From Laetmonice hystrix (Eukaryota): a DNA stretch of 64,000 nucleotides. A program made the position numbers and the translations under genes. The stretch is taken from NCBI GenBank assembly GCA_965235115.1, contig OZ249436.1, positions 31,994,001 through 32,058,000 of the forward strand. The letters are read 5' to 3'. The notes under the pieces were generated by a model, which was given only the letters and a program-made list of their open reading frames with translations, ran no database searches and was not told where the DNA came from. Positions 960-53,897 of this stretch are shown piece after piece. The stretch's first letter is position 1. Every line of letters starts with the position of its first letter.

Positions 960-1014
960 AAGTCAAAGACTAGGTAGTGAAAACCCTCATCTTGTATACT
1001 GTCATGAAGTCGAA
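960..1014 (-). CDS. CaMKII: CaMKII coding exon 4 (55 nt): (V)RLHDSIQDEGFHYLVFD(L)
   Basis: Acceptor cctgtctctctgtctttgcag and donor TT|gtaagt. In frame with exons 3 and 5. Confidence 0.98.
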
Positions 1015-7658: not shown

Positions 7659-7832
7659 CTGGCCCTGGATTTTACTTTGCAAACCGAGTCTTAAGATTCA
7701 AATCTTAAAACTCTTGTGTCAGGGCTTCTGATTAGTCCTTCAAATGAAGTCAGCCAATGAGAGACCATAACACAAGTCAGTCTTAAAATTCAAGTCCTAA
7801 GATTGGTAAAATGACAAACTAAAATCCGGGCC
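7659..7832. mobile_element. MITE, same family as 33582-33763 but in opposite orientation; a small related element follows at about 7834-7911
   Basis: ggccc-type termini. Aligns by eye at about 90% identity to the reverse complement of 33582-33763. Confidence 0.85.
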
Positions 7833-11912: not shown

Positions 11913-12360
11913 GGCTGAGTTCACATAGGAGTATACGGTATACGGTGTACGGTATTCGCTATTCGATATACGCTATACGGGCACGGCGAGTCACGCCCGC
12001 CAGTGTCTTAATTCCCGACATGAATTGAAAGGTGCCCCCCTGCCCCTTCCCTTGAACTGATTTCTTTGCAATTTTTAGAGTCAATACCCCTATATATCGG
12101 CCCTTAGATCTGAAAATTTAGTTAAAAAATATCAAGAACTGTGTAAATGGTGAACTTTTAAACACCGGCACTCCAAGGTATACGCTGCACTAAAATCGAA
12201 CACGCACGATTCCCACTATACTATACTATACGCCTTTTCGAATAGTGCCCTCTGATGTGACCCGGTATAATAAGATCCTATTGTACGATTTAAGCTATTC
12301 GCGTGCCCTGCAAAACGTGCACCGTATACCCGTGCCGTATACTCCTATGTGAACTCAGCC
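11913..12360. mobile_element. PIF/Harbinger (Tourist-like) MITE, 448 bp, TAA target-site duplication
   Basis: Perfect 26-bp TIR ggctgagttcacataggagtatacgg, with TAA on both sides (11910-11912 and 12361-12363). Confidence 0.92.
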
Positions 12361-14741
12361 TAATGGAACCGCCCATTGAGTTTCCATATTTTTAAACCTA
12401 TATTATATACCAGTTCGGTAACAAATACACTGTTCTCCCGACGGTGCATGCTGTCTCGTGCAGACGTGCTCCCGCCACAGGCCAAGGCCGACACTGACAC
12501 ATGGCAAGGACGCAGTCACTCGGGAACAATATTACATGACGGTTTGTCACGCTAAAAGGTCTCCGGATTACGGTGTAACTGTCACCACCCTTTACTCACG
12601 GCTCCCAGAAAGGCAGCGTAATGGCAGCAACATTCGGTGATTATGCGTCTAAACTGCACCATTACATTCGCTGACGATAGGTAATGTTCTTTAGAGGGAC
12701 CCGAGCAGTGACGTGCCCCGACATTCCGTGATCAGGCCAGGGCAATCCTACAAGTCCCCCTTCAACATTAAAATTGCAAGGCCCAGACAATTCATCCGTA
12801 ATACCCTGCAAGGCCATGATTTATTGTTTCTGTCTGCCATCGTTACCAGTGTCTGGTTACAGCAGTCTAAATCGGTCTGCTGGCTTATTCTGACAGGCCT
12901 GCCCACCACATTTCTCTCTCTTCCCCTACTGTCTCCTGCCACCACTTGCCTTCGTGGATCAATGACACCTGCTTACCCCCAAATACATATTCCTCTGTTT
13001 GAACCATGTGAAAACAGCATCTGCAATGGGAGGCAAGCCACAACCCTTCACTTAGCAGAATCACCTTGTCAGAGAATTATTAAACAATCATCAATCACCG
13101 CCAAGATGGGTTCCAACTGTGTCAGGATTTTCTTTTTCTGCACAAGAGCACTTTAGTTCAGATTGACTCGTATCCCGTCTCCTCTATATAGATTTACGCT
13201 AATTTCGGCAAAAGGAAATGGTTTTAAATTCCCATTTTCTAATGAGTGACACTTGATGCAGATGGATTTCTTAATGTAACTGACTGTAACCAGCGCATCC
13301 TTCATTATTGAAAGAGCAGCACATCCTTCAACCTGTGGTGTTCCCCTTAATCTCTGCGGTTTTCTTTATTGTTTCTCTGATGCATTGCATGTAGCTCAGC
13401 TACATGCAATTCCACCAGTCCAGTCTCGGTGCCGTTGCAAGGCCAGATTTTGAATTTGAGGAGTCACTGAAGAAGAAGCAGAATCTCAGTATCTTCGTCG
13501 TTGTCTCAATCTGTATGAAAGACTAAGTGTGAAAGTGAGACCAAGGCGGGGGAACCAGATGTATACAGCTGCGACTGCCACTGCCTGGGCTCCAGGACCA
13601 GCCAAGGGAGTTCAATATGGGCTATCTCCACCGTCACCCAACTTATCGGTACCGTGTAGGGGAATTGTTACGGAAGATGTCAAAACAAAGTCTGCCTCCA
13701 TCAGCTTCATGGATTTACATCCCATTCAGGGTCATTACAATGACAAGTCCATTTACTCGACTCTTGTAAATGAATTACAAATGCATTATAACTGTACAGC
13801 TTCAAATATTGGATTAAGTTTTTTTTCTTCTCTGACTAGACGTTGCACACACAGATGTGGATACCGGGAAAAGCAGGCAACGTAACAATTTCTAGGCACC
13901 GGGAAATCATATTGATACAATGTGTTTTGCCTCTTCTTGTGTCCTAACAAGAAAAGCTTTAAATGTTAAAAGATTAGGGTGTCCAGGAAAACCGTTTAAA
14001 GTTTTTTTTTCACCTTCCATAAACAACGCCACATGATATTTCTACCCTCTAATTTCCACATTTTTAAAACAACATCGTAGGCACACTCTACTTCTCTAGT
14101 ACGACAAACATGTCCGAGACTTGGCTGACTGGCCCAGCATCCAGGTATGATGGAATCCTTCAGTAAACCTTCACTCCCTCCCAGACTCATCCATTAAATT
14201 ATACACGGGACCTCAGCCTATTCTATATTATGCAAAGCCATGGTTTATCGGGCTGATTTCTCCCGTTACCACCAATAATAGATCAAAGTCGGAGATAAGT
14301 GTTGGTTGGTGGGATGTGATGGGTGGTGGTCGCCTGCCCCTCGCATTTCTGACGCTTATAGTGGTAGAGTAGGGAGATTGGTGATGATGGGGGTGTGGTG
14401 GTGGTGAGGGGGGGGGGGGCAAACTGCCATACCAACCAACGTCATCAGCCTGGGATCCACCGGATCCAATGCAGACACCATTCAATCAGGCCAGCAGCAG
14501 CACGGCCACTGCTTATAATCACGGCAGCCAAACGCACTTCTCAACAATTTCGCACTTCACCGAAATTACTTTCATTCCTGTATGTACACAACAGAAAGGC
14601 ACCATAGCTCATCATATACCAAAGCCTCTTTCGTAATTAACATGCTGTCATAAAACAAAAAGTTTACGAAAATTACTCAATACACCCATTAATCTCTCTC
14701 CCGTCGACTTTTGATTCTTCCTAATATTCTTCTGGGACCAG

Positions 14742-14906
14742 GGCCCGGTTTCAGAAAGGTTAGCATGATCTTAAGGCTCTGCTTAGCCTTTTAGGACCCC
14801 TGATTGGCTGGTCCTCTGCTGCTCAGCTTCATCCAGCCAATCAGGGGTCCTAAAAGGCTAAGCAGAGCTTAAATTAAGATCATGCTAACCTTTCTGAAAC
14901 CGGGCC
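14742..14906. mobile_element. Near-perfect palindromic MITE, 165 bp, CAG target-site duplication (Harbinger-like)
   Basis: About 70-bp arms ggcccggtttcagaaaggttagcatgatcttaa...tgattggctgg and their reverse complement. CAG on both sides. Confidence 0.92.
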
Positions 14907-16768
14907 CAGGGACCAAGACTACCATATTAGATAACATTACGACTTCGGACTCGACCCAATGCAACGCCGGAGGAATGAAGAACTCCTGAAAGGTGTAGGA
15001 CGTCAAGAACTGCTGAGTTTGCCGTAAATTACAACTTGCTGAGACGGCTTCCTGGCCGGGCCGCCAGCGAGCAGTGGAGACCACTCGTGTTGAGGTCCTG
15101 GCAGAGTGTGACAAGGAGAGATCCATTCCATGGCGAGGTGTAAGCGACATGACAGGTGCTCTTTGTGCCAGCTGACATCTCCTGGCAGCACGGAGACCTC
15201 GGCTTGGTTCTCCACCACTCGGGGAGGAGCATCAATCACATCAATACACACCCACTCCCAACACTACCACGACATCGGGCCCAGTGTCACACCATTCCCC
15301 ACCCACAGCGTCACAATGGCGCATTTTCTTATACAGGTTCCGGATTAAAGTTCACAACACCATTCTGCCCTGAACACACACCAACATGGGAGCATAGGTG
15401 CATTTCAAAGCTCAATCTTAGCTGTACGATATTGCTATGGTTAAAACCTCCAGCTGATATGGGGAAAACGGTCACACCAACCATTAATTGTCATGCGACA
15501 TTTATGTAGACACAACGGAATACCAACGACAGTGGGTCATGCCAGCTACGCATACTGTTCGTACCGCCAGCAGTCAGAAATCTGATAACCGTAGACCATA
15601 ACTTAGGTTTGGAGTACGACTCCTCCAATAAATCAACTACCGGACTCTATGGCCGGCTAGATGCATCCCGTCTACAACAGGACCCCAATGCCTCACCGTA
15701 CACTTTTTTCTTCCCAAGGGGGGAGGGGTAACAATACGCTACCTATACTTATGAAAATAGAACTTGTGCTTTTTAGACGCCTAGGTTCTTTTACCGACTT
15801 GAATAAAAGGACGCTGGTACATCCCTCTATTTCAATAAAAGATCAGTCAAAAATCTCCCTTTCTATCCACCCCCACCCTACCCATGCACAATAAGTTGGA
15901 ACACACATGAAAACCTGTCCTCGTCTTTCTTCCCGCTTGAGCCTCAGCGCAGAACCATCAAGGAATCTGCTGATAATCTGTGATTAATTCTACAATTTGG
16001 CATGCCTTAGTTATTTCTAGGACACGTAGAACTGTTCTCCATCTTTGGTTTGTAAGAAAACCTAATAATTACCACTGGAACACCATGTCATTAACGGCTA
16101 TCCGTCTTCAAAACCCTGATTATACAACAGGTACCAAGGACTAATTTAAGGAATGCGCGAAGGAAAGGCATAACGCTACAATTTCTTGATTCCTTCTACG
16201 ATGATGCGGACAAGTGGGGTTTGTTTTCTTTAAAAATTATATAGATCTAGTTTTTGTGGAAGGTACCTGTCCGAATAACCATGTCCCCATCTTATCAAAT
16301 CCACTGTAGCTTCTAATTACTAACATGTTCATTGTGTAATTACATGTATAAGGATAACAAATTACAAATACTCTCCATCCGATATAAAGGGATCTATTCT
16401 AATTACTGAAACACTTGTGACGATTGCCAACCTTGGTTAATTTTCTATCATGAGTGTCCATCCCAACCGAGGGTGGCCATGGTATAGGACAGCCATGGTA
16501 TAAGACGGCTATGGTATTGGACCTTTTGTTTCTGACCACCTCAAGTTCTGGGAGGTTGTGATAGAACGGTGATGGGGCAGCGACCACCGACCGGGGGACG
16601 GGGGTTAACTCCGGTTCTCTCCGCCAACAAGTCGCCCAGTGGGACGGTCTGGCAAGGAACATACAGCCGCTTATAATACAAACCACCTTCAAGCAGGGGC
16701 TGGGGTTAGGTGCGGTCAGGTGGGATCCGGTGATAGGGTGGTGCAAACAAGACAGAACTAAGAAAGCT

Positions 16769-17135
16769 GTGAGTGTGAGTGAATTGGAGGTTTTATGCCC
16801 TCTCGGCAGTATTCCAGCCATATTGAAGGCGATATGAACCATATAATTCAGTCAAGCAACCTATTGTAGGGGAGTCATGATGAGGATGAAGTGAGATAGA
16901 AACCTGCCACTGGGAGGCAATCCCCTATTCTTTTCGAAAAATGGCAAGGGTTCTTTATATATCCTCAATCGCAGAGACACGGCTGGACAACGCCTTTGAT
17001 GACCCAGTAGCGGAGCACTGGGGAGGTCCAGTGAGGAAAATGGTATTGGAAGGATCCAAATCTACCTGTGCCACGCAGCTGATTTTACAATCCGACAAGT
17101 TTTGAACCTGTGTCTCGACTGGAGGTGCTAGCATG
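16769..17135 (-). mobile_element. Decayed tRNA-derived SINE with a Nin/Deu-type central domain and a (cact)-like tail
   Basis: The minus strand shows a B-box-like ggttcaaaac. The core ccagtgctccgctactgggtcatcaaaggc...atataaagaacccttgccatttttcgaaaagaatagggg...gtggcaggtttc and the tail atatggctggaatactgccgagagggcataaaacctccaattcactcacactcac resemble molluscan/lophotrochozoan SINEs (recalled, not searched). Confidence 0.7.
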
Positions 17136-17515
17136 CATGTATGTATATCCAAACATCATCTCGGAGGATGGACACTTTTCTGGTGGTGGAACAAATGATT
17201 ACAAAATAATGAAATTGACACGTTGCTGGGACTGGGACAAACCTATTACCTGGAATGTTGTTCTAAATAAATTGCAGAGTTATTTTCAGGTTACCCTGGA
17301 GTAACCCATAGGGTTGACCCCATAGTTACACTAACAGAAATCCCATGGTTACACTAACAGAATATGTGATAAAGAGCTCATGTTAACTTCACTCTGACTT
17401 TACTCTGACTATTCTTCATTAACTGTAGGATTCAGTCTGACAGCTTCAACTGAACGGCTTCATTGCCTGCACGCACCATGCACGGTGTGAGACTTTCCGA
17501 CGTGACGCAACTGAC

Positions 17516-17600
17516 CTTTACTGGATGTCGTTCACAAAAGTACGTTACTCACCTGAAAATAGAAACAGAAACAGTCAATTACATAAGTCATGTGCCCACT
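17516..17600 (-). other. Candidate recursive splice site (junction 17553|17552) with a 37-nt cryptic exon (17552-17516)
   Basis: Sense strand reads aattgactgtttctgtttctattttcag|GTGAGTaacgt. Downstream donors are AAG|GTCAGT (17515) and ATG|GTGCGT (17476). Confidence 0.7.
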
Positions 17601-20600
17601 CTGCTTCGCAATGAAACATAAAGGAGATTACTGATGAAATAACACTATTCGCTCTCTTTGGTACATAAAAATAATATTTTCATTTAAGTTGGTAGAATTT
17701 GTGTAGCTGACAGAACGATAATCTGCCCACTGCTTATACTATTCCTTTCCCCCAGCATATTCTATTTTAATAACTCAATTTAAGCCCATCTGGGTTACAG
17801 CCCAAATTACGGTTTCAACATGTTTTCGCATACTGGAGGGACCTTGGACAAAGCTTGAGGGTGGCCTGTCTATTTATATCTCCCTATTATCCTAACTTGG
17901 AGATTGGATCAATTATCCTAATTGTCCATCGCTCAGCCATCTGGCTCACTGGTTGCCAGTCAGCATTGGTCAAAATCTCTTGTGATCACATATTTATACG
18001 CTTTCCTGCCAAACACGTTTTGGAAAATGTGAGGAAAAATGAGATACTTTGGTGTTATCTTGAGTCATTATTTTGGTGAATGGAATTGTTACTAATGATA
18101 ACGGTGAGTGATGCAAGGACTAATCATTTCATACGTTTTGTTGTGGTTAGTGTTATTTACGCTTTTCGTAACGGTTTACCGACCATCTAGCTTAGCCTCG
18201 TCTGAGTGGACGGAACTGGATCACTCACACAGAGACACCTGACTGATCGCTTCTGTCTCATCTCACTGAATCTGAGGCGAGGAGACAACGTTGTATCTTA
18301 AAGGTATGAAAATTTCATTTCAACAAATTCCTCCAAACAGCCAACGTATTCGCCGTTAGGTTCATGAATACGTTAATATTATATTTTAGAGATGCCGCAA
18401 TTTTGAGAAAAAATAAACTTAATCTTTTTTTTTTTTTTTTTTTGGGGGGGGGGGGGGTTGACGGATATAATAAGGACAATGACTAAGTACATAGTGCTAC
18501 ATTATCCACTTCTTTCTCCCAGATTCAAAAGCCGAAAATAACCTAATGCATGCAACATACATGTATATATTTAAACTCCCCTTCCCTCAGCGACCTTGGT
18601 ACGGTGACGTGTAACTATCGTCCTTAGTCGGTCCCAGGGATTCTGTTAGGACTACCAGCGAGGTGTATTTCGTGCGACAATCTGCTGGAAAAACGTCAAT
18701 CTCCCGAACACCCTGTCTAAACTGATCAGGCAGTCTCCAGCTCTCAGAGTGCGTCAGGTCACCGTCCATCAAACACACACACACAAGGTTATAATACATG
18801 GCCCTGTGTCAACATCTCTGGCCGTACAAACATGCGACGCAATCTTGTCGCGTTTGATGGAGGCCATTGTGGTATTACAGGAAGAGCCAAAAGCCACTGC
18901 ATGCATTTAATTTCGCAGGGCCACTGTTGGCTAAGTGGCGCTAAAGCTGCTGAATGGGCACCTGCCGGTGCCAGGCGGAGTGCACCATCAAATCCCCGGG
19001 CCCCAGTGGCCACGGCTGAGGGCTGACCACTAGGGAAACGTTACAGCCCCATGACGACGACAACTCGTTACCTGTGTCTGCTGAGGCAGCACTTGGGGCC
19101 TGCTAATGATGAAACGGACAACTTCCAATTAAACGATTTCTTGTCAGACATACTGTCAGGCAATCGGCTCATTAGGCAGCGAGCATGTGGGTCTTCTCGA
19201 AGGGTCATGCCCAAGTGTGGGTCTAATCGCCTTTCGTTGCCCTGCTCTGGACACCTAAAACTCACTCACTTTAACTCCTCAACTCACGATCAAGGTCAAA
19301 ACCCAATAAGAGCCCGGCCTTTAATGACATTTTGCCAGTTTCACGAATCTATAACCTTCAAGCACTTATGATTCTTACTCGACGTTACTAGATCTACTTG
19401 TACCAACGGGGTCGAATGGTTTTGTCAGACTTCAACTAATTAACAGTTATAAAACCTGAACGTGTCAACGTAAGCCAGAAATTCTACATTGAACATGACA
19501 GTAGGCCCCATATAGTATAAAAGTCCATTTTCTAAAGATGTTCCGGGGGAAAATGCTGGTTGTAAAGCTATAAGGTTAACTTCATGGACCAAAGCCTCTC
19601 GTTATGTCCATGCTTAATCCTTTCACTTAACTTGCAGAGATCGGATTTAATGCGATTCTTCAACCCGAATGGACAATTTAAGAGACCCCTTGGTTGTACT
19701 CATAATTACGATGTCATTCAGCCAAACAAGGCTTACGAAGTATTCTATAACAAGACTCTTTATACGGCAACATCAAGACCTGATGGTGATACTGACCACT
19801 GGTTCCCTCAACATGAACATAATTCAGCCGTATATTTAAGGCTCCTACTTTTGTAACATTCAATAAAGGTTTAAACACCCCATCAAAGGATTGCTCTTTT
19901 AAAAAGGGGAAGGGCGTTTTTCGTCCAGAATATAGAACATAATTGAGATGGTATTTTAAAACTGATTGCCTCTCTAGTTTACAAAATATTGATGAAGCAA
20001 CACATTAAGTTGAAACGCATGTACACGCCGTGCAGTCAGTTATCTTAATTGTATATCTTAGCGATGGAAATAGAGTCGATTACTGCTACAGCACAGTATT
20101 GTCAAAGTTTTAGACAAGCGCAGATTCATTTCAACACTTTAACAAGCTGATCGAAAGATATGCTGGCCCTTTTCACCTATGTCACCAACATTTTCAACCT
20201 ACCATCTCCACAAGTCATGCAGGATTTCAAAATGTTTCACATATAACATACAGGATCCTCATAAGACAAAATACCACATAGATCGAGTTTTCCTAAACCG
20301 ATACTTTGTACGTTTTGCTGTATTCACATTCAATACTGGGGCAGTAGAACCTCGTAGTATATAATTCTTACGACGCTGATTTCTTTAAGACCCAGCGTCG
20401 TGTTCTGCTCGCCTTCCATCTCGTTGTTCTGCACGTACTTTGCATAAATCTGCTGACTAAGAGCGGGACGCGATGCCTCCACAAAATCCTACCCGATCCC
20501 TGCTAAATGTTCATATTTCTAATACTTTCAGCGAGAGGCAAATGGCAGCGACCTGAGACAAGGAAATGGGACATATCAAGTTATATGTGGTTGCCTTTTT

Positions 20601-20899
20601 TTCTGCGATTGTGAATCAAACTTAACTCCGACTCATTATATTATATACATGTACCTGTGGTTAAAGTCGTCAAGCACCGACCTATCAAGTGACACTGATC
20701 AGTGCATACAGCGGTTTGACGTCTGCTCACGTGAACTGTAACTAAAGGCCCGAGTCCGCACGCTACTTTATGACCGACTTCATGACTGTCTACACACTCG
20801 TTACCACCGACCGTTGTCTGTTAAAGGTTCCCGTCTTATTTTCTTCATGCATCAAGGACTCCCCTAACAAAGATACGGGCCTTGGCGGCGCTTCTCCAC

Positions 20900-21035
20900 C
20901 AGAGGCCAAGTTTTTCCAAACTTATCTTCTTGGTTAAGCTCAGGATCAACGCTTCTGATTGGCTGGTCTGCAGGAACCAGCTAATCAGAAGCGTTAAGTC
21001 TTAAGTTTAAGCGAGTTTTGAAAAACTGGTCCCTG
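20900..21035. mobile_element. Degenerate palindromic MITE related to 14742-14906
   Basis: Core aacgcttctgattggctgg...ccagctaatcagaagcgtt, imperfect ggccaagtttttc/gaaaaactggtcc ends, CAG/CTG flanks. Confidence 0.7.
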
Positions 21036-21144
21036 TTGTATTTCGTAACACAACGTCCCTGGAATCCGATCATCTTAGCATGTCCGGTGGAACACCATCG
21101 AACACCAGATGCTCAATTTAGTCCTACACTACAGTGTAAAAAGT

Positions 21145-21175
<31 letters not shown>

Positions 21176-23853
21176 GGTCTGCGAGTCTGGATCAACATAC
21201 GCGACCACAGCGCCATCTTTTTCTTCAACTGTCTGTATCAGCTAGTAACCAAATTTTCCCCACGCCATCGTATGTATTCATGCTGGCCAGTCTCTTTTTT
21301 CTTCACAGGACTTCACGTGCTATCCCATAGCACTAGGTACCCGGAACCACATCTTATATCAACTATTCAATATTGGCATAATTACCCTTTATATTAACTG
21401 CGCCGTAAATGTAAGCCTGTCGTAAGCAAGTATGAATTCCCAACTGGAGAACACCTGAGCACCATTGGCACTGCGAAGTTTGGAAAGGTCAGGCCAAACT
21501 GCAGCTACCAATACCACCTTAACAATTCATCATATTCCTTGGCTTGTTTTTTGGCACATCCTAAGCTAAATTCATGACACAGTGTTCTCATAACGAAGCT
21601 AATGTTTCCTCTTGGAAGATTTTAAACAGGCACTTCCTGAAGGCCAAATTTGCTTTTCTCTGGCAAAACTTGTAATTGGCAGTGTAGGAGGCATGCAATC
21701 ATGTTACTCTATCTCCAAAATAGTCTTCATTGATGTAAATTTAATAAGTAAACAGTCTAAACAAGCTGATTTGAGGCACTGAATCAAAGTGGAAAATGTC
21801 AATTTCCTGCAGTAGGAGTCCTGAATATGGACTCCATGTGTCCTGGTATGCCCCTTGCAATGCTATCTGATATACTTTACATCCCCCTCTACACGAACTG
21901 CATGAGCTCATATTGTCAAACTGTCACTGCTCCCCTCCACATCTGATTGGACCGACCGTCTGCAGCCGTCGGCGCCAGTGTTTACGTTTATATCAAGAAA
22001 AGCGCACAATATCATTTAATACCTTGTCCTGGACTCCCTCCTCCAAAATCCAGGGTCTTTTCCCGTATAAACTTAAACGGGGACGTTTCTCGCAATATTT
22101 AATTAGCAGCTGTCGAACATGGCCTCGGTTAAATGTACCTTGTTTCAGTTTATGTTTTAACCATGCAGCTACAAAAACGTGTTTTGAAGCCTTACCATTC
22201 TGTGATGCACTGAAGTGCTTTAAATAGTCCAACAGTAAACAACTATAACATCTATAAATATCTCGATATTTATTTTATGTGACCTGTCACTACCTTTGCC
22301 TCAAGATACATTTAATACTTGTGTCATTTATTATACTTTGCAGCCTCAGATTCAATGAGCGGTTTTACAAAAGTACAACTTTAAAATAGCAATATTTTAT
22401 CTCCTAATTATAAATAAAGAACGAAATGGAGCTCCAAAAATGTTAACGATGTGAAACTTAAAAATCCGAAATAATACTTCCCCTTCGCCTAAATCCTGCA
22501 CTGTCTTCACTACTGGCACATTGATTGTAATGATGGTAATATTGTTGATGACAACACGAACTCCACACCCAGTGGGGATAGGAACGCAGAAATAAGCGAC
22601 CATTTTTTGGCCATTGCAAGCTGTCTTTTATTCATTTATAATTACCGCACACCCCAAGCCATGGCGCTGTGCTGTGATTATGCCCGCCTTTCTGTCGGCG
22701 GCGCTGTCAGCCAACCTCAACCAGTGAAACCGTGCCTCCCCCTTCCTCGTCTTTCTCCCATGTCTCCTGCGACGCCGACAATGGTGAGACGTGGCTGGAG
22801 GAGGCGTCGTCGTCCCGCCAGCATCCATCTGCCAATATCTCATTCTTAACCTCAGACAATGACAACTAATCAGGCAACAGGCTCGCCGCCACAATCATAA
22901 GTGTGGTCCGCCGCGCAATACCTGCGATATCTTGACAAGAACAGGTAGTGTACTAATTTCGGGACAATGTCAGACTGCCTGTTGGCATTGGCCATCTCCT
23001 GTTCAGATTTATCCAGCGGAGTGGGCTGGAAGGAATTAGCTTATTCATGAACGGAGGAAAACGTCGCTGTAACGAGCACAGGCTAGCGTTACAAAATACG
23101 GAGAGGTAGTCTGCAGAAAGATTTGGACTGACTCGAGCAGTGAGATGATTGGCGAGATGTGGCTAAATGTCTGTCTCGCCCCTGTCCCTTTGTTTAGAAT
23201 GAAGAATATCATCCCTAAAAATAATGATTTCATCAATAAATAGGGGGTTTCCCCACTCTGTTTGCTTCTATTATCTAAGTGAAAATGTATGGCAATGATA
23301 AATTGTATGCATAGTGATGATACTTTCTGGCTCCGCCACACAAAGAAGAGAACCTTATATCCAATCAAATATATCTGAACTATATCAGAAAGCATCTTTC
23401 TATTGTATCTCAGAAATATGACTTCAAAATCGACAGCACCCACAGTGCTGGAAAAAAATGCCTACCGTTTTTACGTTAGGCTACACTCACAAAAAATGAG
23501 ATTTCACAAAGAATTTCAACATTAAATTTTGTTTTTGACTATATCTTTGCGTCCCTTTTTCGACAACCGTCAAAACCTGGGTATTGCATCGAGTTTCATA
23601 GGCCAGGGTTGGGGGGGGGGGGGAAACGAATGATACCGATATTTTAGACCCCGTCATCACATCTTATACTGCTGCCTGCTGCAGCTGGCTGATCCAATCA
23701 GTAAGCTTGTAACAACCAGCCATCAGGCGAACCTTCACGCTAATGGTTCCGCTGCCTCAGGTACGTGATCTGAGGGCAATTCGGCCACTCTTCCTCGGCC
23801 TCGCATCACGGGTCTCCCAAGTATCACCCAGAATGCCTGTCACGACAATCGAA

Positions 23854-24095
23854 CTGCCCTTATTCTAACATCATTCAAACTGCATCCTTTTGGCTGCCCT
23901 TATTTTAACGTCATTCAAACTGCATTCTTTTGGCTGCCCTTATTCTAACGTCATTCAAAATGCATCCTTTTGGCTGCCCTTATTCTAACGTCATTCAAAC
24001 GGCATCCTTTTGGCTGCCCTTATTTTAACATCATTCAAACTGCATCATTTTGGCTGCCCTTATTCTAACATCATTCAAACTGCATCCCTTTGGCT
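23854..24095. repeat. 40-bp minisatellite, about 6 copies
   Basis: Unit ctgcccttattctaacatcattcaaactgcatccttttgg. Confidence 0.95.
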
Positions 24096-24494
24096 ATCGC
24101 TTCTGTTGTGAGGTAAGGTCGAAACCTTGATAATGTCCACACACAAAATAAAAAAAGAAATAAAATTCAAGCGCTGCTTTAGAGTCTTGGCCATGGAAAA
24201 CGACAGGGACCAAGGCAACACTGTCTCTTCTTGAACATCTTACAAATCACTGAGGGAAAACAGGTCGTATGTTGATAAACATCTAGCCTTATTACGTTCC
24301 AAAAAAACCGCGACGAAACCACTGATACGGTGGCCCCACCAGGTGTGCCGACAGAATGTGCCTGACGGGGCGAGAAACCAATTAAAGCAAGGCTTCTGGC
24401 GTCGTGTTGGAGCCGACAATCGGCTTCCACTTCCCCGCTACCTTCTAATGACACATGTCTTCTAACTTACAATCAGACCGTCAGACATTATATT

Positions 24495-24815
24495 ATAGGG
24501 TGGGCATAACAAAAATTGTCGAACTTCGACGTCAAATATTTCAAAAACCATACGTCACAAGCTTCTGAGAGGTTATAGGCGTAAATACCTTGATGTTCCT
24601 AACATTTCTTGACATTTCCAAAATGATATGTCAAAAATAGTCCCTCCATGAGATCAAGTTGAACCAGGTAGGACGTTATTACAACTAAATCAGGAACAAC
24701 ATTTTTGAGACACAATTTTAATTTAATTCACATCTAAGGACAATGTGAGATATCAACATGAATATTTCAACAGATGTTTAGCACACGAGGTTTTTTTAAA
24801 TGTCCACCCGATATA
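24495..24815. mobile_element. Possible decayed Tc1/mariner-type MITE
   Basis: Ends tatagggtgggcat and atgtccacccgatata are imperfect inverted repeats with TA flanks. Confidence 0.35.
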
Positions 24816-26001
24816 AGAACTTCTTCTTCAAGTACACACGTTGGTCTATGTCGGTGTAATTAGGATTTGTAGACCCAGACGTAAAATAATTATAAGGGAA
24901 AGAAAAAGATAGGGGCATACATGTTGTTTGTAGGTTTAATGTCTCGGTGGCTCAGGATGACATGCCATCAGTTTAGAATTGGGCCAGCCTCGGCCTGCGT
25001 GCGGACGTCGTGACTTATTACTGTCTTCAGACTAGAGACAGAGAAACACCAGCCGCCACAACCGTGCCTTTTTGGTCGTGCAAGATTAATTTTACAACGT
25101 ACAAATCTTGGAATTCTGATCTTTGCAAACGTAGACAGAGCAAAAGAACCCATCATAACTAAACAAGAAAAATCGTCACAAGCACCGACCAACAAGAATG
25201 CAGTGACGGGTATGATTTTTGTCAATGTTACTTTATTTCAGATTCTTTCATGCCGTCTGTGAGCACTGCTGTGAAGCGAACCTTTTGCTATCATTGAGCA
25301 CCGACAAACAAAGATGGAATTACCGACGCTATTTTTCACGAGAAATCACTACTTTATTTCATTGGCAATGCCTTGGGGCCCTTCCAAATATGGGAACGCG
25401 CTTCTCAGATTGTGTGCCATTCTAAATGTTGATGTTCAGGCGAGCAGGCGAGCAAGATTTAAATAATTTCAAGAATGATAGGATGCAGTCAGCTTTTTGT
25501 GAAGGTTATTGCAGAAAATCTACGCTTTGAGAGAAATCGACTCGTTTTAATGTTTACCCTCTGCTGTTACAGCATATATGTGGAGGAGACTTCTCTCAGG
25601 CAAAGAACAGAATTAACCTCAACTCTTTCCTTTGACCCCTTCAGGAAATACTGCGAAAATTGGACAATCCCTTTTATCCGGACAAAAACCTTTAAACCTT
25701 TTAAATGAGATTTGTCTAATTTAATTTGTCCACACGCAATATTTTGCCCCTTTCTCTGTACTGAAAGGTCAGTTTCCCATGTAGTTAGATCGGTCCCCAC
25801 ACGGGGGTGCCACTGACACATTTTGGTCTATTTATAGGTCGAGGATCAATGGCATTCGAAATGCAAAATCAGAGGTCAGTTGAACTGGAGGCCTGAGAGC
25901 ATTCCCACTTGTTCCAACAGGTATAACAGTCAGTCCTATAGATTTCTTGGAGTAACACCCAAGGTACGACACAAGACGGTAGACCAGAAACAACGATTCG
26001 T

Positions 26002-26250
26002 GTTCTTGAGCTGTGAACTTCCATGGTTCTTGAGATGTGAACTTCCATGGTTACTGAGTTATGAACGTCCATGGTTACTGAGCTGTGAACGTCCATGGTT
26101 CTTGAGCTGTGAACTTCCATGGTTACTGTGCTGCGAACTTCCATGGTTACTGAGCAGTAAACTTCCATGGTTGCTGAACTGTAAACTTCCATAGTTACTG
26201 CGCTGTAAACTTCCATGCTTACTGAGCTGTGATCTTCTATGGTTACTGAG
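26002..26250. repeat. 24-bp minisatellite, about 10 copies
   Basis: Unit gagctgtgaacttccatggttact. It explains the 8-aa periodic ORFs on both strands. Confidence 0.95.
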
Positions 26251-29200
26251 AAGCCAGAGACTCCAGGTTTCAAAACTTTAATACCATGAGAAGACATGGA
26301 TCTAATTTTTTAAATAGTTCAAACAATCTTAACAAATGCGTTTTAAGATTGTAAACTATAAGATAATTATTAATTTTCCTAAACTTATCTCTAACGGTGA
26401 TGCTTTAAATCAATTCTAAATACCATGAGTACGAAATGCCAACGTGCATAAAACCTTCATAAGATTATTTTGACATGACGATATAATAATTCATATGAAA
26501 ATCAATCGAAACCATGGGACACTGCAGTTGCTATTTTCGTCCTGTGGACGGCGGTCTCAGCTCATACAAATCAAGGCCTAGGGGGCCATCGTGTGTCTGT
26601 GCCACTGTGAATCAGATGACAACCCATCTCAATTCACATAAAGATGACGAAGGTTGAGTAAACTACATGGTTTATTCTCGTGTTCTGCTTCCCGCAGTCG
26701 GTGATCTCCGACCGCCGCCGGCACCGTGGGGAGCAGGAGGAGGGGAAGGAACAGGAGGAGCGGGAGCAGGAGGAGGAGCAGCAGCAGCATCCATCACTGC
26801 CGTCGTCCTGCCGGCTCGCCGAGCTCGGTCCGCCTGTGACAGTTCTAGGCCGGAGCTCGCCGCCAATAAGACGGATCACACACCGGTCCCAATCACACTA
26901 CATGTACAGCTAGACACCCGGCTCCACGACGACGACGGCGACTAAAGACAACGACAACGACGTATCTCTCCGAGAGCCCTCCCGATCTAATACTCATCCC
27001 TATGATGGAGAAACTTGCCAATCCCTCATCCTCCGTTCATCAGAAATCTCAAGGTCTCATCTTTCAATGTTTATGGGAACACACTGAGAAAAAACAGACA
27101 AGTTGACACACATCCCGCATTTAGGAAAATCTCAAGAAAACAGTCCCTGCTGTCTTCAATCCCCTCAGAAAAAATACTCTCCTTCGGTCAACAAGGGTCT
27201 GTGTTAGCTATCTAAATGTTCCCGATTCAGTAAAGCTGCCATGAGTTATCATCAACTGTTTTATGTGACCGCGATTATTTACACCAGCATTAGGTTATTT
27301 ACATCTATCACGCCATATTTGCTCTTCAGTCTATTTGTATTGAATTTGTCATGTCTACTCTGATATCTTTGTCTGAAAGTTATCCTTAAACTTACAATAA
27401 TAACAATATATAAATCCTTGTCTTTATTATGGTACACAAATTTATGTACACCTCCATCCAAGTCATATTTTACTATACCAGATATAAAGTATGGGTAATT
27501 TTGGTCATCAAACGTCAGTCCAAGTTATTCTGAGTTAACTATACGTGTACTTTAAGATTCCTAATTTAGAATGTCCCTACTTTATGTAGTTACTCTTGAC
27601 GGAGGCAGCAAACCTTCTTCCTCGGGTTCCATCTTATTGTGTTACTTTCAAAATGACCCGGTGTTTGGCGATCTTTGCGGTCCCTTCATCATGGACCTGT
27701 ATTACTCCCAGTGCAGCTGGGTGCAGCTCATCTCACCCGTACATCTCTTCCTACCATCTTTCTGATTTGAGAAGTCAAAGGTATGGTGATGAAGTGCTTA
27801 CAGGGACTTACTACACGATGATTCCAAGAACTGAGGTTCCTTTTCCTATCGACCAAAATTTACGTTTATATTACCAGACTACACATACCTTTCTTATCAT
27901 TGATGCCCATAATGATAACGATTCTACTACTGAGGGGCAAAGTCACTATCATTAATTATACAAGTGATAGATCTTCAGGGTGAACAAACTGATATTGAGA
28001 GGTGTTTCCCAAAAAATGACCCTACTTGAGACTAATTACACTAAGACAGAAACCCCAGTAATTGCTCAGGCGTTGTACTTTAGTTTGTATATTCGTGGAG
28101 CACACCTACACGTAAAACAAATTTGTGCACGATACAGGCACAAACATGTATGACTTGGTGATCATTTTAAAGATTACGGGCAATCGGACCTGCATCAGAA
28201 AAACGTCCCTCATCTTCAAAATAACATCCTCCATGGTACAAAGAATGTTTGAGCCAATTTGTATGCCTGCAGCATGACTTGCGCCTTTTTTCTTGTTAAA
28301 TTCTAACTCTAACCTGTTAAGTTTACAAAATAAGACAGTTCTTAGACAGGGCTAACATGACACTAAGAGGAGACTCGAACGAGGGTATCATATCCTGAGC
28401 CAAATTTATCAGAAGTAACTTGACTAGGCCAGCAGGTGTTTACACACAAAAAACTACCAGACCCACACGCTAGGACGAAATGGGCAAAACACGCTCGAAA
28501 CGAACATTCGTTCAAAACTGACACCATTGACATCAACCATGGGAGGCCACAGTTGGCTTTGACGCCTCAATGGATTCAACGCTTGTGAATGTTTCATGTT
28601 GTCACAGCAACAGTAGGCCACTACTAAAGGATGCGGTAAGCACAGGATAAACAGCTTTCTCTCTCTCTCTCGCTCAGGGTCGCACAATTGCAGTGATTAT
28701 TTGCTTAAGGGAGAAAGCTATGTATGCAGAGTGCATACACTAAAAAAAATTTGAGGAAAGGACCTTTCATTGTATTGGTATTTCCATAAAATTGATAACT
28801 TTGAGGAATTTACTGATATGATCCAAAATCTCGACACAGTTATGATGATACTGATGTCTAGACGTTTTCCAGCTATCTTTCTCCCTTACAAAGGGCACGT
28901 AACTACCAAGCTGTATCAATATTATTATCAACGCGAATATGGACTGTGTGGAACAAAATAGAAGATTCCACTCGGAGAAGCCACAAACAAACCTGACCAA
29001 ATATATGACAACCAGGAGTACGGGTATTAGCACTAGCAACACCTACTAACTGACCCAGATGTGTAAACCCTGTATCGACCCATAAATATGCTTCTGATGA
29101 TGATCCCCGCAGTAAAATCAATACATCTAACATGACGGCAAAACCGATTACGTCCCTGTTTATATATTACTCACGCAACAAAGATTCCTTTCATGAGAGA

Positions 29201-29563
29201 ACCATATAAATTGGCCTTTCCTAAGTAATGGTTTTGATGTATAAAGCTGTATACTTTAAGCTGACCGTTTTTTTAACATGAGACATCAAACACTGACTGC
29301 ACTTAGAAGGAGAGGTGAGGCACACGAAGTCCTGGCCGTACCACGAGTACAGACAAGACCCCATGGATCCTGTCTGTACGTTGATATTTAACCACTGGCT
29401 TTACCGACGTCGGGACGCCAGGGTGTCAATAGATCCCTTTCACCTGAGTAGACTGTGTAATCAGACACACCGCAAAAACCACTGTTGTATATTTCAAAAC
29501 CCTTCACTCTACTATCCCTACGGGTTCAAGCATCTTTTTTATTCACCCACTACGAAGCATTAA

Positions 29564-30043
29564 AGGGGCATATTATGAGGAAACGTTAAAAATCGGTATT
29601 TCATAGAACTTTTGCTGTTTTCATAAAGAGATCCTTCATTAAAATTGCTTAGTAAACAAAGACAGTCTTATCAGTTTCATTTTGCGTGAGAAATCGAAGT
29701 TTATTAAGCTCCCTTGCCCGCTTCTCTGCCAATTTTGTAAAATATTTTTTTCTGATGCCGGGCGATCGAGTGCCACTGCTGAATTGTTTACAACTAAACA
29801 AAGCACGTGACTAAGCACATTACACGGGTTGATGGGGGGTTGTCCGCCAAATTATGGCGGGAGATGTGCTATCGGGAGAAATCTATAGGTTTCGTCGTAT
29901 AGAACCTACTTGTGCTGCATACGCAGCGAAAACACGTCGGAGGGCAAAATGCTGTGGTAGGATTATTTACTTGGATCCCTAGTACACGGTCATGTTGGAT
30001 AATTGCCGGAAATCCTCAAAAACGTGTTTCATAGCATGCCCCT
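29564..30043. mobile_element. Non-autonomous DNA transposon with TTAA target-site duplication (Kolobok-like), 480 bp
   Basis: ttaa|aggggcatattatga ... tcatagcatgcccct|ttaa. AG..CT termini with a TTAA duplication fit Kolobok better than piggyBac. Confidence 0.8.
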
Positions 30044-30256
30044 TTAAGGTTTTGATAAACGATGTTCAAATACAGCTGGGAGCAACTGCAGCCTATTGAT
30101 TTGACCCTATTATACCAAGCTGTGTCCCTCCGGGCATCACAGCGAGTGTTCGGTTATCCAACACCTCTAGTTTATATCCAGTTGGCCACCTGTGGGTTCT
30201 GAAATAAAACGATGTCTGTACAAATAGCAAGGGCCTGTAGGACGTTTGAGCGAGTG

Positions 30257-31038
30257 GGACCCACAGACTGTGTCTGGAAGGTAATGGGAGACTTAGAGAG
30301 GATGGTTCAGTACGGTTCTGATGACACCTCCTGATATATTGCCTGGGTCATGGTGATACTCCAGTAGGGTCAGCACCAGAGACTGTCACCTCATAGACTG
30401 GTACAGGTAGGACCACCCAAGGACCCACAGACTGTGTCTGGAAGGTGATGGAAGACTTAGAGAGGATGGTTCAGTACGGTTCTGATGACACCTCCTGATA
30501 TATTGTCCGGGTCATGGTGACACTCCAGTAGGGTCAGCACCAGAGACTGTCACCTCACAGACTGGTACAGGTAGGACCACCCAAGGACCCACAGACTGTG
30601 TCTGGAAGGTAATGGGAGACATAGAGAGGATGGTTCAGTACGGTTCTGATGACACCTCCTGATATATTGTCCGGGTCATGGTGATCCTCCAGTAGGGTCA
30701 GCACCAGAGACTGTCACCTCACGGACTGGTTACAGGGTTACAGGTAGGACCACCCGAGGACCCACAGACTGTGTCTGGAAGGTAATGGGAGACTACAGAG
30801 AGGATGGTTTAGTACGGTTCTGATGACACCTCCTGATATATTGTCCGGGTCATGGTGACACTCCAGTAGGGTCAGCACCAGAGACTGTCACCTCACAGAC
30901 TGGTACAGGTAGGACCACCCAAGGACCCACAGACTGTGTCTGGAAGGTGATGGGAGACTTAGAGAGGATGGTTCAGTACGGTTCTGATGACACCTCCTGA
31001 TATATTGTCCGGGTCATGGTGACACTCCAGTAGGGTCA
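30257..31038. repeat. About 164-bp tandem repeat, about 4.7 highly similar copies
   Basis: Unit start ggacccacagactgtgtctggaaggt at 30257, 30421, 30585, 30758 and 30923. Confidence 0.96.
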
Positions 31039-31242
31039 ACATTAGTGACTCACTGTCACTTTACACTACTAATAATCAACCACGGTAAACCAGTGTAATA
31101 CAGACACTAAATATCAACTTGTCACCTTTCCTGCCAAGTGTTACTACTACCTTTCTGGGAGATTATTCACAGTGATTTGATAGTGTCACGATTACACATG
31201 CTACCAAGATGTTTCCCGGCCAAGCCTCTTGACAAAAGGTTA

Positions 31243-31373
31243 GGGCAGGTTCACACTGCGGATTTCCCCTGGGTAATATCCGGGTCAGGGGTGGTGAGCT
31301 GTATGTGAAGATACCAGCTCACCACCACTGACCCGGGTATTACCAGGGGAAAATCCTCAGTGTGAACCTGCCC
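31243..31373. mobile_element. Palindromic Harbinger/Tourist-like MITE, 131 bp, TTA target-site duplication
   Basis: Termini gggcaggttcacactg and cagtgtgaacctgccc with about 60-bp arms. TTA on both sides. Confidence 0.92.
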
Positions 31374-31817
31374 TTAGGCTTGACAAAAGGTTAACGACGG
31401 CAGGCCGAGTTTAAGGGCCTGGAGCCCTCCAACATCACGAGGGCCTGAAGACAGCCAATCGAACCACCGCCCAAATATCACGCTTCACTTCAGATAATCT
31501 TTTTATTTGTAGGGGGAGGGGATGGCAGCTGCATCAGACTAAAAATAGATTCCTCGCTACACTCGATCTCATTTCCTGCACTCACTCTAAATTGTCATTC
31601 CAGGTCTCATCACGATTTCTAAGTGTGTTCAATCAGTGCTAATGCTAATGCTTCGTTGGCCTCTTGAATTTTCATCTGGGTTTCACCTTCAGTTCACCCG
31701 ACTAAATGTCAATGTGTTTACTTTGCCTTCTCGAAACTAGTATCTCATTCAAAGTGACAACCTTTCCGTCGTGTTACAAACAGGAGAAGTTTTGTGAATG
31801 CTTACCTAAGACGGAAC

Positions 31818-31988
31818 AAGCCGACCGATGTCCTAATCATGTGACTGGTATTTTATGTTTTATTGAAATGGTCAGTACGGAGAAAATACTCACGACCCTG
31901 AAAGCCGACCGATGTCCTAATCATGTGACTGGTATTTTATATTTTATTGAAATGATCAGTACGGAGAAAATACTCACGACCCTGAAAG
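31818..31988. repeat. 84-bp direct duplication (2 copies)
   Basis: aagccgaccgatgtcctaatcatgtgactgg...tactcacgaccctga at 31818 and 31902. Confidence 0.93.
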
Positions 31989-32017
31989 ATCTTCAATCAT
32001 ATAGGCCTATTACTTAC

Positions 32018-32115
32018 CACAAAACTGAGACTCGGCTTTCTTTGCATCGAATAAAATAAACGTCACTCACCTGAAAGATAAAAGAAATTATCACAAATAA
32101 GATATGGTTAAAGTG
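32018..32115 (-). other. Candidate recursive splice site (junction 32071|32070) with a 53-nt cryptic exon (32070-32018)
   Basis: Sense strand reads ctttaac (branch-like)...ttatttgtgataatttcttttatctttcag|GTGAGTgacgt. Downstream donor GTG|GTAAGT at 32017. Confidence 0.75.
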
Positions 32116-32376
32116 AGGTAACAATATTCAATGTTTGTAGCCATGTCGGCTAAAATATAGTGAGATAATACATTTCTATCTTCTTCTTTTTTAATCATAG
32201 TGAAATTACAGGTATAGATTATGTACCTCTAAAAGGACAACACTTGATATTTCTGCAGATTATTTTGCAGATCTTACTTACAATGATACACAAAATGACA
32301 GTTGGATACGCATCCCTAGTTTATGGGGTGCTGCGGGCCACAGAGACAATTGCCACCGTGGCCGCAACGCCGACCC

Positions 32377-32786
32377 ATACTGTTGCTATATTATGTGGGA
32401 CAGACAGACCCAATTCGAATCATCAATATACTGTTGCTATATTATTTGGGACAGACAGACCCAATTGGAATCATCAATATACTGTTGCTATATTATTTGG
32501 GACAGACAGACCCAATTCGAATCATCAATATACTGTTGCTATATTATGTGGGACAGACAGACCCAATTGGAATCATCAATATACTGTTGCTATATTATTT
32601 GGGACAGACAGACCCAATTCGAATCATCAATATACTGTTGCTATATTATTTGGGACAGACAGACCCAATTCGAATCATCAATATACTGTTGCTATATTAT
32701 TGGGGACAGACAGACCCAATTCGAATCATCAATATACTGTTGCTACATTATGTGGGACAAACAGACCCAACTCGAATCATCAATAC
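32377..32786. repeat. 51-bp minisatellite, about 8 copies
   Basis: Unit atactgttgctatattatttgggacagacagacccaattcgaatcatcaat. Confidence 0.96.
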
Positions 32787-33581
32787 ACAGACAGACCCGC
32801 TTCGAATCATCAACTGCTGCGGTTGAGGATACTACATGTCAGTATATTGTACAGACGCCACCAGTGCCATTTAATATGCTTCTGCCCTCAATGTTTTTTT
32901 TGGCATTTTTATTCTACCTGTCTGGATGTTGGGGTTAATGTGATTGGGTGGTAGGAAGACGCTAAAAAACAATTCTTTTTACACCCTAATATTCCGACTC
33001 ACACACATGTATACATAATACAAACATAATGCAAATGGGTATACCGTTGTCAATTAGGTTAACAGCTTTACATACTCCAATAACTAGGTTCACTTACTAC
33101 ATGAGGATTTACGCTACCAGAAAAATATCTGATTGACCTGTAAGTTCCACTACACTGTCCAGAGCTGGAACTTTACAAACTGCAAATGCAAAAAGTGTCT
33201 TGTCCAGCTCTAACGGATACTTTGGATATTTTATTTTCTAAACAAGATTTTCAGAACAATGAATGTGTTTTTTTACAATTTGCTCCTAAATATGCAAGCG
33301 ACCGTCACCAGGGAAATACGGTTCTGTTCTCATAATAATTTCCTTATCAAAAGGCTATTATGAGAGAAATGCTTGCATTTTACACCTTTATGGGTTAAAT
33401 TGGATAAAGACAATCTTTCATGATACTTTTGTAAGAAAATGTGAAAATGTGTATTTTAAAGCAGAGTTTTGTAAGAAAATGTAAAAATGTGTATTTCTAA
33501 ATATTTGCTGCATTGTGTAATACAATTATGCCATCAAAACTGAACGGCAAGCAAAGATGAAGGTACCCCTAAAAATTACTT

Positions 33582-33763
33582 CTGGGCCCGGTTTTTAGTT
33601 CGTCATTTTACCAATCTTAAGACTGGGATTTTAAGACTGACTTGTGTTATGGTCTCTCATTGGCTGACTTCATTTGAAGGACCAATCAGAAGCTCTGAAA
33701 CAAGGGTTCAGTCTTAAGATTTGAATCTTAAGACTCGGTTTGCAAACTAAAAACCAGGGCCAG
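33582..33763. mobile_element. MITE (Harbinger-like, CWG flanks); inverted partner of 7659-7832
   Basis: Termini ctgggcccggtttttagtt and aactaaaaaccagggccag, with internal tcttaaga palindromes. Confidence 0.87.
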
Positions 33764-34989
33764 GGCTTTTATGTTGCACTTTGCTCCCACTGCGGCCAGA
33801 CACATTTTGTTAATCTTTACCCCGATTGCCACCTCTTCTGGGCCTGGCGATTAAAATGCTCCTACCGGAAGTTTAAATGGCAGATTCAGGTTTTCCCCCT
33901 GGACCTTATTGCAACCCCCAGGAGCATCACGATCCGAGGTTTGGCAACCACTGTTCCCACATTCCTCCTTGAACATTTTTCAACATGGCCGCGTGATGTT
34001 TTCACACCCATCGGAACCCATGACGTGATTGAAGTAGGACGATGGGACTTTCCAGACGAACCATTAAGCAATGGCGGCTTATAAACGGCCCAATCCTGCC
34101 TTCAGAGAAGTGTCGCATGTAGAACCAACACTGTACAGTCTTCTCTCGGCTCTATTACTGTGGCAGAGATCCGTCATGAAATAACATGAGCCAAGCCTCT
34201 CTTCATATCCTGGCGGCTCGCTTTGCCAATCTGCCCCTGTCAATGGTTACAACCTGCGACCACTGTCAGTTTCTACCACCAGTACTCCGGTACCTGCGGG
34301 TATTACGGAGGATTACCAGTCTCCGGCCGGGTAAGCTTGGGGTGGGCTGGGGGTATTAATCCTACCAGATCACCCGCACACTCCCCTGGATTTCTCTAAA
34401 TCCTTATCACGGTCCACCAGAATCAATGTTGCAATATTGACCAAATAAAGGCGGTGGATTAGAGGAGACTTGGCGTGGGGGTTGAACTGTGCGGAATATT
34501 AGCCTCGACCATCAGACCATCAATCTCTGTCACCCAAACCAAGTCAATCTCACGACATGTCTCATGAATCGGGCAGGTTTGTGGCAAACAACAAACCAGA
34601 CCTGATCGAGTCGAGTTTCCACTGGAATAAGGTTTCCTATGGAAAAAAACCGATATCTGTGGTCGGGGAAATATTCTAGGAAAAGTCATCTTGACCTACA
34701 AACATGTAGGCCTACCCCCCAATTATTAATTTCTCGTCCACCCCAATCCTATAATAAATGTATTGCGTATATATTCGTGGTCCACATATCATCAGCATAT
34801 ATTACTTGGCCTGTATTATAACCTTCAGCCAACGAAACACCCTATACTTATTCATATTCTATTCATATTTAACACAAGTAAAACATCTTTTATACATTAG
34901 CTTTTATCTAATACGGTACATACAATCTGCCTCATGTTTTCATATTAACCGTACATTCATCAGACACTGGCAGGCCGACATGAACAGTT

Positions 34990-35270
34990 CAGTCTGATCC
35001 AACAACGAGAATAACCCTTTCAAGTGAACAAAATGGCTTGATCCAGCAAGAGGAAACTGATCGGAAGGCAGACCTAATGATTTGATCCAACAGGAGGCGG
35101 ACAGTTGAGCGGGCGGACGAAACAAGCCGATCAAACAAGTGTCTACCGGCGGAGCCGACAAACCCACTGCTTCGATCCAGCAGGGATTTATTCAGCAGCA
35201 GACTTTATGGCTTGATCCAACATGGTAACCGTTCTGCAGGCCCAACATGATGGCTTGAGTCAACAGGCTG
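34990..35270. repeat. Degenerate minisatellite of about 43 bp
   Basis: A (g)gcttgatccaacagg-like motif recurs about 6 times at roughly regular spacing. Confidence 0.55.
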
Positions 35271-37685: not shown

Positions 37686-38078
37686 ACACACCCCAGTCTA
37701 ACAGTATCCCTCCATACACAGCGCACACCCAGCCCAGTCTAACAGTATCCCTCAATACAGGACACACCCACCCCAGTCTAACAGTATCCCTCAACATACA
37801 GGACACACACACCCCAGTCTAACAGTATCCATCAACACACAGGGCACCAGCCCCGCTCTAACAGTATCCCTCAACATACAGGGTGCACTCACCCCAGTCT
37901 GACAGTATCCCTCAACATACAGAACACAGTCACACCCACCCCAGTCTAAAAGTATCCCTCAACACAGCGCACACCCAACCCACCCAAACAGTATCCCTGA
38001 ACACACAGGACACGCCCAACCCAGTCTAACAGTATCCCTGAACACACAGGACACACCCACCCCCGTCCAACAGTATCT
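37686..38078. repeat. 40-45-bp minisatellite, about 9-10 diverged copies
   Basis: Core accccagtctaacagtatccctcaaca with variable CA-rich spacers. Confidence 0.93.
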
Positions 38079-42513: not shown

Positions 42514-42657
42514 GTGTGGTGGCTGCGGCGGTGGTGGTGGCGGTGGCGGTGGTGGTGGTGGTGGCTGCGGCGGTGGTGGTGGTGGTGGCTGCGGCGGTGG
42601 TGGTGGTGGTGGCTGCGGCGGCAGTGGTGGTGGTGGTGGTGGTGGTGGTGGTCCTGG

Positions 42658-42711
<54 letters not shown>
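42514..42711. repeat. Compound triplet repeat: (GGT/GGC)n followed by (TGC)18; (CAG)18-(CAC/CGC)n on the sense strand
   Basis: Read directly from the sequence. Confidence 0.97.
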
Positions 42712-42713
<2 letters not shown>

Positions 42714-53874: not shown

Positions 53875-53897
53875 GCCGCCGCCGCCGCCGCCGCCGC

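Follow-up and report, generated by a model that had tools for sequence, protein, structure and literature searches.

Candidate recursive splice sites followed by in-frame stops in the long third intron of a CaMKII gene from Laetmonice hystrix

Does the long third intron of a CaMKII gene in Laetmonice hystrix carry recursive splice sites, and is the stop codon at the start of each of them a built-in safeguard? We analysed a 64,000-nt stretch of this genome (GenBank assembly GCA_965235115.1, contig OZ249436.1, positions 31,994,001 to 32,058,000; here called the window, with positions counted from its first letter), whose minus strand holds exons 1 to 5 of the gene in one continuous open frame (Table 1). 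A preliminary description, made from the letters of the sequence, had assigned the gene to CaMKII, and this assignment agrees with the best PDB matches of exon 2, which are solved CaMKII chains (top E 1.3e-12), alongside a weak Pkinase match below the cut-off. Since exons 1-3 comprise 220 coding nt, intron 3 is in phase 1. We favour, at a probability of about 0.6, the reading that two sites in this intron belong among the ordinary recursive splice sites, or ratchet points, described in flies and vertebrates, and that the stop codon and the ACGT common to both are incidental. Statements on published work apply to the portions of the cited papers that were consulted.

Two acceptor-donor fusions in intron 3

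Both sites lie on the minus strand. Specifically, TTTCAG ends at 32071 in site 1 and at 17553 in site 2, GTGAGT starts at the next letter (32070 and 17552), and positions +7 to +11 read GACGT and AACGT, respectively, just as the preliminary description had given them. The donors that it had placed downstream, at +53 from site 1 and at +37 and +76 from site 2, are also present. The gene, the intron with its phase, the anatomy of the two sites and the downstream donors can all be read directly from the DNA. The features sought in a recursive site are found together here: a long intron (57,633 nt), strong acceptors with a branch-point-like motif, and the fusion AG/GTRAGT. The two sites split intron 3 into pieces of 26,577, 14,518 and 16,538 nt, and the TAG that ends exon 3 supplies positions -3 to -1 of each regenerated donor. 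These elements make the two sites plausible recursive splice sites with cryptic exons.

We judged acceptor strength by a heuristic (pyrimidines per 20 letters, AG-free zone and branch-like pentamer) rather than by MaxEntScan, and on this measure the acceptors of both sites match the four true acceptors of the CaMKII gene in quality (14-17 of 20 pyrimidines, AG-free zones of 29-41 nt). The string CAG/GTRAGT has only two matches on both strands of the window, both of them co-oriented with the gene. Among the 35 strong acceptor-like AGs of the sense strand, 0.0225 are expected to stand directly on GTRAGT and two do (P 2.5e-4, an optimistic value because the thresholds were chosen after the sites had been seen); on the antisense strand the count is 0 of 40. 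Of the 37 GTRAGT motifs on the sense strand of the intron, the only two with AG in front are also the two with the highest upstream pyrimidine counts. The significance of the two sites arises only when acceptor strength joins the 9-nt core.

If the sites are ratchet points, each acceptor and a donor 37-76 nt downstream would define a cryptic recursive splice exon (RS-exon). Exon 3 would be spliced onto site 1, where its end and GTGAGT would regenerate a strong donor that outcompetes the donor of the cryptic exon; this donor would then be reused onto site 2, and the next onto exon 4. By extension from fly and vertebrate work, intron 3 would be removed in three (perhaps four) pieces to leave a normal mRNA. 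In the rare event that the regenerated donor loses, the cryptic exon would be kept, the frame broken and the mRNA presumably decayed, the frameshift contributing no less than the immediate stop. The stop at +6 to +8 would be a by-product, because T ends the donor consensus, a purine at +7 is allowed by U1/U6 pairing, and only the A at +8 is free.

Recursive splicing is an established mechanism in both flies and vertebrates, and a probable spiralian CaMKII case would, if confirmed, extend the range of the mechanism. Our literature search on recursive splicing together with annelids or molluscs gave matches on other subjects, as judged by titles and abstract openings. Drosophila ratchet points with cryptic RS-exons (kuz, Bx, Ubx-RP) likewise consist of an acceptor fused to GTRAGT in a long intron (PMC8605326, PMC6110457). 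Fly RS-exons measure about 50 nt and are usually out of frame (PMC8605326); the short out-of-frame exon predicted at site 1 is of 53 nt, compared with 53 and 56 nt for Ubx-RP and chinmo. In both systems there is more than one site per intron, and inclusion would break the frame. Recursive segments in flies are typically 9-15 kb long (PMC6110457), and our 14.5- and 16.5-kb segments are close to this range, which supports the ratchet-point reading. The two systems differ in the letters after the donor. In the S1 table of PMC6110457, which holds 539 candidate sites, string searches counted 88 with AG/GTRAGT; a pyrimidine stands at +7 in 63 of these and RACGT follows in none, whereas the CaMKII sites have a purine followed by ACGT. 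They differ as well in that the CaMKII sites are known from sequence alone. No row named CaMKII was found in the fly supplements consulted, whose rows carry FlyBase numbers, so that a search by name is weak. In human CAMK2D, the first-pass table of PMC6110456 gives a 52.5-kb intron between exons of ~60 and 55 nt, with one putative AGGT site. From the exon sizes we infer that this intron is orthologous to intron 3, and the presence of a long intron at this place may be ancient. Among the matches listed for 12 of the 15 files of the same supplement, no CAMK2 row was found in the junction-read table.

Several observations weigh against the reading that we favour. By itself, the 9-nt core is within chance (1.07 expected, two seen; 30 of 100 shuffles reach two), the acceptor thresholds are post hoc, and use of the sites is predicted from the sequence of this one genome. 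The sites stand at 46% and 71% of the intron, not near its thirds, and the first segment is long (26.6 kb). RS-exon 2 is less well defined than RS-exon 1, because no GTRAG donor lies within 600 nt downstream of site 2; within 100 nt, site 1 has GTAAGT at +53, and the best that site 2 offers is GTCAGT at +37, its other motifs being weaker. Other points concern the word incidental. On the intron-wide background after AGT (20%), stops at both sites have P ~0.04. A purine followed by identical letters at +8 to +11 in one pair of sites has P 0.0014, any common run of at least 4 within +7 to +16 has P 0.025, and by the energy of in-register pairing with U6 small nuclear RNA (snRNA) the sites come second and fourth among 51 GTRAGT motifs (P ~0.005). 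Finally, the outside samples used for comparison come from other lineages and were taken without regard to phase, and their results are compatible with an effect that is confined to phase 1 or to this lineage.

It is unlikely that one or both sites are chance sequence, unused by the cell. Such a reading gains from the frequency of the core motif and from the richness of the sense strand in GTRAGT, whose 37 copies in intron 3 are what composition predicts (38.0 under an order-1 Markov model). Stretches of this kind are also picked out for their unusual look, which favours chance finds. Against it stand the P value obtained once acceptor strength is counted, the orientation of both sites with the gene, and a 53-nt cassette closed by a consensus donor. 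We discarded the excess of GTRAGT on the sense strand (37, versus 8 on the antisense strand) as a selected signal, since the sense count equals the Markov expectation; the antisense count lies under its own expectation of 20 (P 0.002). Origin of the two sites as copies of a repeat was also rejected, as they have no repeat family in common and their flanks do not align in register. Site 2 sits in a contig of single-copy depth of ~1.3 kb in 3 of 3 DNA runs. DNA contigs X1-X3, from the same organism (one sample, one study) and aligned with 6400-23700, cover site 2, site 1 lying outside, and no variant at site 2 was seen among the contig variant rows listed, to which 206 further rows belong. RNA structure around the sites is unremarkable (z-scores 0.20, -0.65, -0.68 and 0.23), and a structural reading of the sites or of the shared ACGT was rejected on these values. 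Known RNA families gave 0 matches at the gathering score.

The shared ACGT and pairing with U6

The preliminary description had suggested that the shared ACGT may be an extra recognition element. As a general element this is not borne out: RACGT occurs in 0 of the 88 fly strings, one of which has RACG and then A, and in 0 of 89 clusters from a scan of public DNA contigs. The scan pattern consisted of a pyrimidine tract, CAG and GTGAGT, with nothing fixed beyond +6. It gave at least 120 matches in at least 119 loci, of which 114 with 120 nt downstream form the 89 clusters; all contig counts here and below are among the matches listed. The set mixes organisms, many of them probably not animals. 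A donor stands 25-110 nt downstream in 26 of the 89 clusters (12% expected, P 6e-6), and because of this surplus we conclude that the set holds some real recursive-like sites. As a separate observation on this set, the related contigs L004, L013, L027, L041, L072 and L087 form a cluster with an acceptor-donor fusion and a downstream donor in common, the latter always at +63 in the four of six rows listed; L005, L015 and L039 form another, with the donor at +53 in the two of three rows listed. Both are apparently shared recursive-like sites in the DNA of other animals. With just two examples to compare, the ACGT that the Laetmonice sites have in common is most probably coincidental, and the data are compatible with a role that these letters may have in this lineage. 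At the DNA level, TGACGT is familiar as a cAMP response element (CRE)-like motif; such a reading would fit site 1 only and would leave the position of the letters unexplained.

We also considered whether the letters common to both sites lengthen the pairing with U6 snRNA, which would help the regenerated donor beat the donor of the cryptic exon after the first splicing step, with an exon junction complex just upstream. We used the U6 sequence of PMC5467268 and a termite U6 in PMC10256727, in place of this animal's own, in the register that sets the G at +5 opposite C42, with pairing out to +9/+10 (PMC8283771). The purine at +7 would pair with U40, C at +9 with G38, G at +10 with C37 and U at +11 with A36, which leaves the A at +8 alone unpaired. 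Over +7 to +14, both sites form 6 of 8 pairs, compared with 3, 3, 3, 5 and 3 for the gene's five true donors. The high in-register energy ranks given above point the same way, the +37 donor of site 2 likewise has CGT at +9 to +11 (background 1.3%), and the exon junction complex represses regenerated donors in human cells (PMC6224609).

However, this idea is post hoc, and given a common 5-mer a U6 match of 4 of 5 has P ~0.06. Duplex energy in free register is not unusual (P 0.10). Fly sites, besides their preference for a pyrimidine at +7, have R.CG in only 2 of 88 (PMC6110457), and contig clusters average 3.28 U6 pairs versus 3.26 in controls, with CGT in 0 of 89. A donor-like motif at 37540-37553 (minus strand), beside a 41-nt tandem array and with no obvious acceptor upstream, pairs better (7 of 8 at +7 to +14) than either site. 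The junction complex, moreover, did not repress recursive splicing in fly cells (PMC6224609). We regard the U6 extension as quite unlikely. No such account of recursive sites was found among the matches listed in our literature search; if true, it would explain, by a rule new to the field, why a regenerated donor prevails over a cryptic exon. A dual-purpose extension of recursive donors in this lineage, in which +7 and +9 to +11 lengthen the U6 helix in favour of the regenerated donor and the A at +8 completes an in-frame stop that removes messages where this donor has lost, has little probability. If true, it would be a recursive-site signature unlike that of the fly, and the gene would be the first of spiralian type with demonstrated recursive splicing.

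The stop at the start of the cryptic exon

As the preliminary description had stated, retention at either site reads Gly-Glu-stop, with the stop at +6 to +8, given the phase of intron 3. Its description of a retained cryptic exon as a decay substrate also stands at the level of sequence: the stop falls at codon 76, more than 50 nt before later junctions, with the exon 4/5 junction and later ones downstream, in line with the 50-nt rule for decay substrates (PMC6110456) and with the definition of a poison exon. This consequence is already published and not new here. In vertebrates, inclusion of RS-exons likewise leads to a premature stop and decay, a premature stop being present in 158 of 232 (68%) human RS-exons (PMC6110456). 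In the CaMKII intron, a single site could lead either to an exon of length zero or to an mRNA bound for decay. A 'binary switch' idea for RS-exons is in print (PMC5126111), and the vertebrate work of Sibley 2015 is cited in PMC5126111, PMC8605326 and PMC6224609. The difference lies in the claim that the donor's own +6 to +8 letters are selected as a stop, which was not found in the consulted portions of those papers; nor did our literature search find prior work on stop codons inside donor motifs. Thus, the observation is largely real, and its interpretation is partly known and partly unsupported.

The preliminary description had taken the letters after the donor as selected to place a stop, matched to the intron phase, two codons inside the cryptic exon, where it would serve as a fail-safe or a tunable off-switch. 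Both of the two sites have the stop, and the low probability on the intron-wide background, given above, also favours selection. The A at +8, which completes the stop, pairs with no letter of U6, and with none of U1 either. Yet the same stop follows 10 of the 23 other sense GTGAGT motifs in the intron, which gives P 0.22 for both sites, and 13 of the 35 other sense GTRAGT motifs, which gives P 0.16; this does not support a motif built to make a stop. The letters AA or GA after 10 of 23 non-site GTGAGT motifs exceed the 20% background, possibly through short-period repeats.

The stop would also gain little. All three candidate exons (53, 37 and 76 nt) shift the frame, and counted from the exon start a further stop follows at nt 96, 33 and 33, respectively, so that the immediate stop trims the aberrant peptide by only 30, 9 and 9 codons. 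It is redundant because all three exons frameshift and stop soon anyway.

Weaker candidates point in the same direction. We took these as the 20 other YAG/GTR sites in which pyrimidines make up 12 or more of the 20 upstream letters, and the earlier statement that they too stop within 4-6 codons holds for only three of them (49715, 47865 and 43577); the other 17 stop at codons 7-63. This does not differ from background, on which 16% have stopped by codon 5 and 25% by codon 7.

In the outside samples there is no surplus either. A stop at +6 to +8 is present in 14 of the 88 fly AG/GTRAGT strings (16%; PMC6110457 S1 table), in 19 of the 89 contig clusters compared with 20% in shifted controls, and in 5 of the 26 clusters with a downstream donor. 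Since neither set is resolved by phase, an effect confined to phase 1 would be diluted in these counts. Taken together, the stop at each site is real but probably not a purpose-built off-switch, and selection for it is, in our estimate, very improbable. The stop within the motif adds little to the published decay fail-safe.

Site 1 could instead be mainly a regulated poison cassette, in which inclusion of the 53-nt exon would reduce CaMKII mRNA in some cells, its recursive skipping being the other outcome. It has a strong acceptor and, at 32017, a donor that follows the consensus over +1 to +7, and donor competition sets inclusion in flies and vertebrates (PMC8605326, PMC6224609). However, intronic RS-exons of flies are described as always skipped (PMC8605326), site 2 is without a comparable donor, and the immediate stop is unnecessary for such a cassette; we give this possibility a similarly slim chance. 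An alternative last exon, opened by site 1 and ending at an intronic poly(A) signal, so that a short mRNA would be stable instead of subject to decay, is extremely improbable: AATAAA does occur at +123, +207 and +564 past site 1, but the first two copies sit in an 84-nt tandem repeat, the signal occurs 36 times on the sense strand and not within 600 nt of site 2, and the product would be a 75-residue fragment.

Coordinates and surroundings

Table 1. Position of the CaMKII exons, the two fusion sites and the candidate cryptic exons in the window, ordered along the minus strand.
Feature	Position	Strand	Remarks
CaMKII exon 1, coding part	60598..60662	-	65 nt from ATG; joins exons 2-5 in a single open frame
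CaMKII exon 2	60074..60168	-	95 nt
CaMKII exon 3	58648..58707	-	60 nt; ends in TAG; phase 1
Intron 3	1015..58647	-	57,633 nt; phase 1
Weaker third candidate	47860..47888	-	16/20 pyrimidines, CAG then GTATGC; weak donor, poor downstream donor
Site 1 acceptor	32071..32111	-	Branch-point-like pentamer at -41; 15/20 pyrimidines; 77-nt AG-free zone; CAG
Site 1 donor GTGAGT + GACGT	32060..32070	-	TGA at 32065-32063, in frame if exon retained
Candidate cryptic RS-exon 1	32018..32070	-	53 nt; frameshifting; use predicted
Competing donor GTAAGT of RS-exon 1	32012..32017	-	Consensus over +1 to +7
Site 2 acceptor	17553..17578	-	Branch-point-like pentamer at -26; 16/20 pyrimidines; 44-nt AG-free zone; CAG
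Site 2 donor GTGAGT + AACGT	17542..17552	-	TAA at 17547-17545, in frame if exon retained
Candidate cryptic RS-exon 2	17516..17552	-	37 nt; donor GTCAGT at 17515
Alternative RS-exon 2 form	ends 17477	-	76 nt; weak donor
CaMKII exon 4	960..1014	-	55 nt
CaMKII exon 5	554..619	-	66 nt

With the third candidate (47865) included, intron 3 would fall into segments of 10.8, 15.8, 14.5 and 16.5 kb. Site 1 is surrounded by tandem arrays at 30257-31038 (164-nt unit), 31818-31988 (84 nt) and 32377-32785 (51 nt). The 84-nt unit contains TTTCAG, a GTGAGT six letters past its AG, and AATAAA, and so places decoy signals just 3' of the cryptic exon. An inverted-repeat element at 14733-14915 and a high-copy stretch at 11899-12361 are passed over in DNA contigs of the same organism, which skip 168 and 461 nt there, consistent with polymorphic insertions. 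Other inverted-repeat elements lie at 3183-3482, 31242-31374 and 63487-63753, and a dispersed repeat has copies in opposite orientations at 7655-7832 and 33585-33767.

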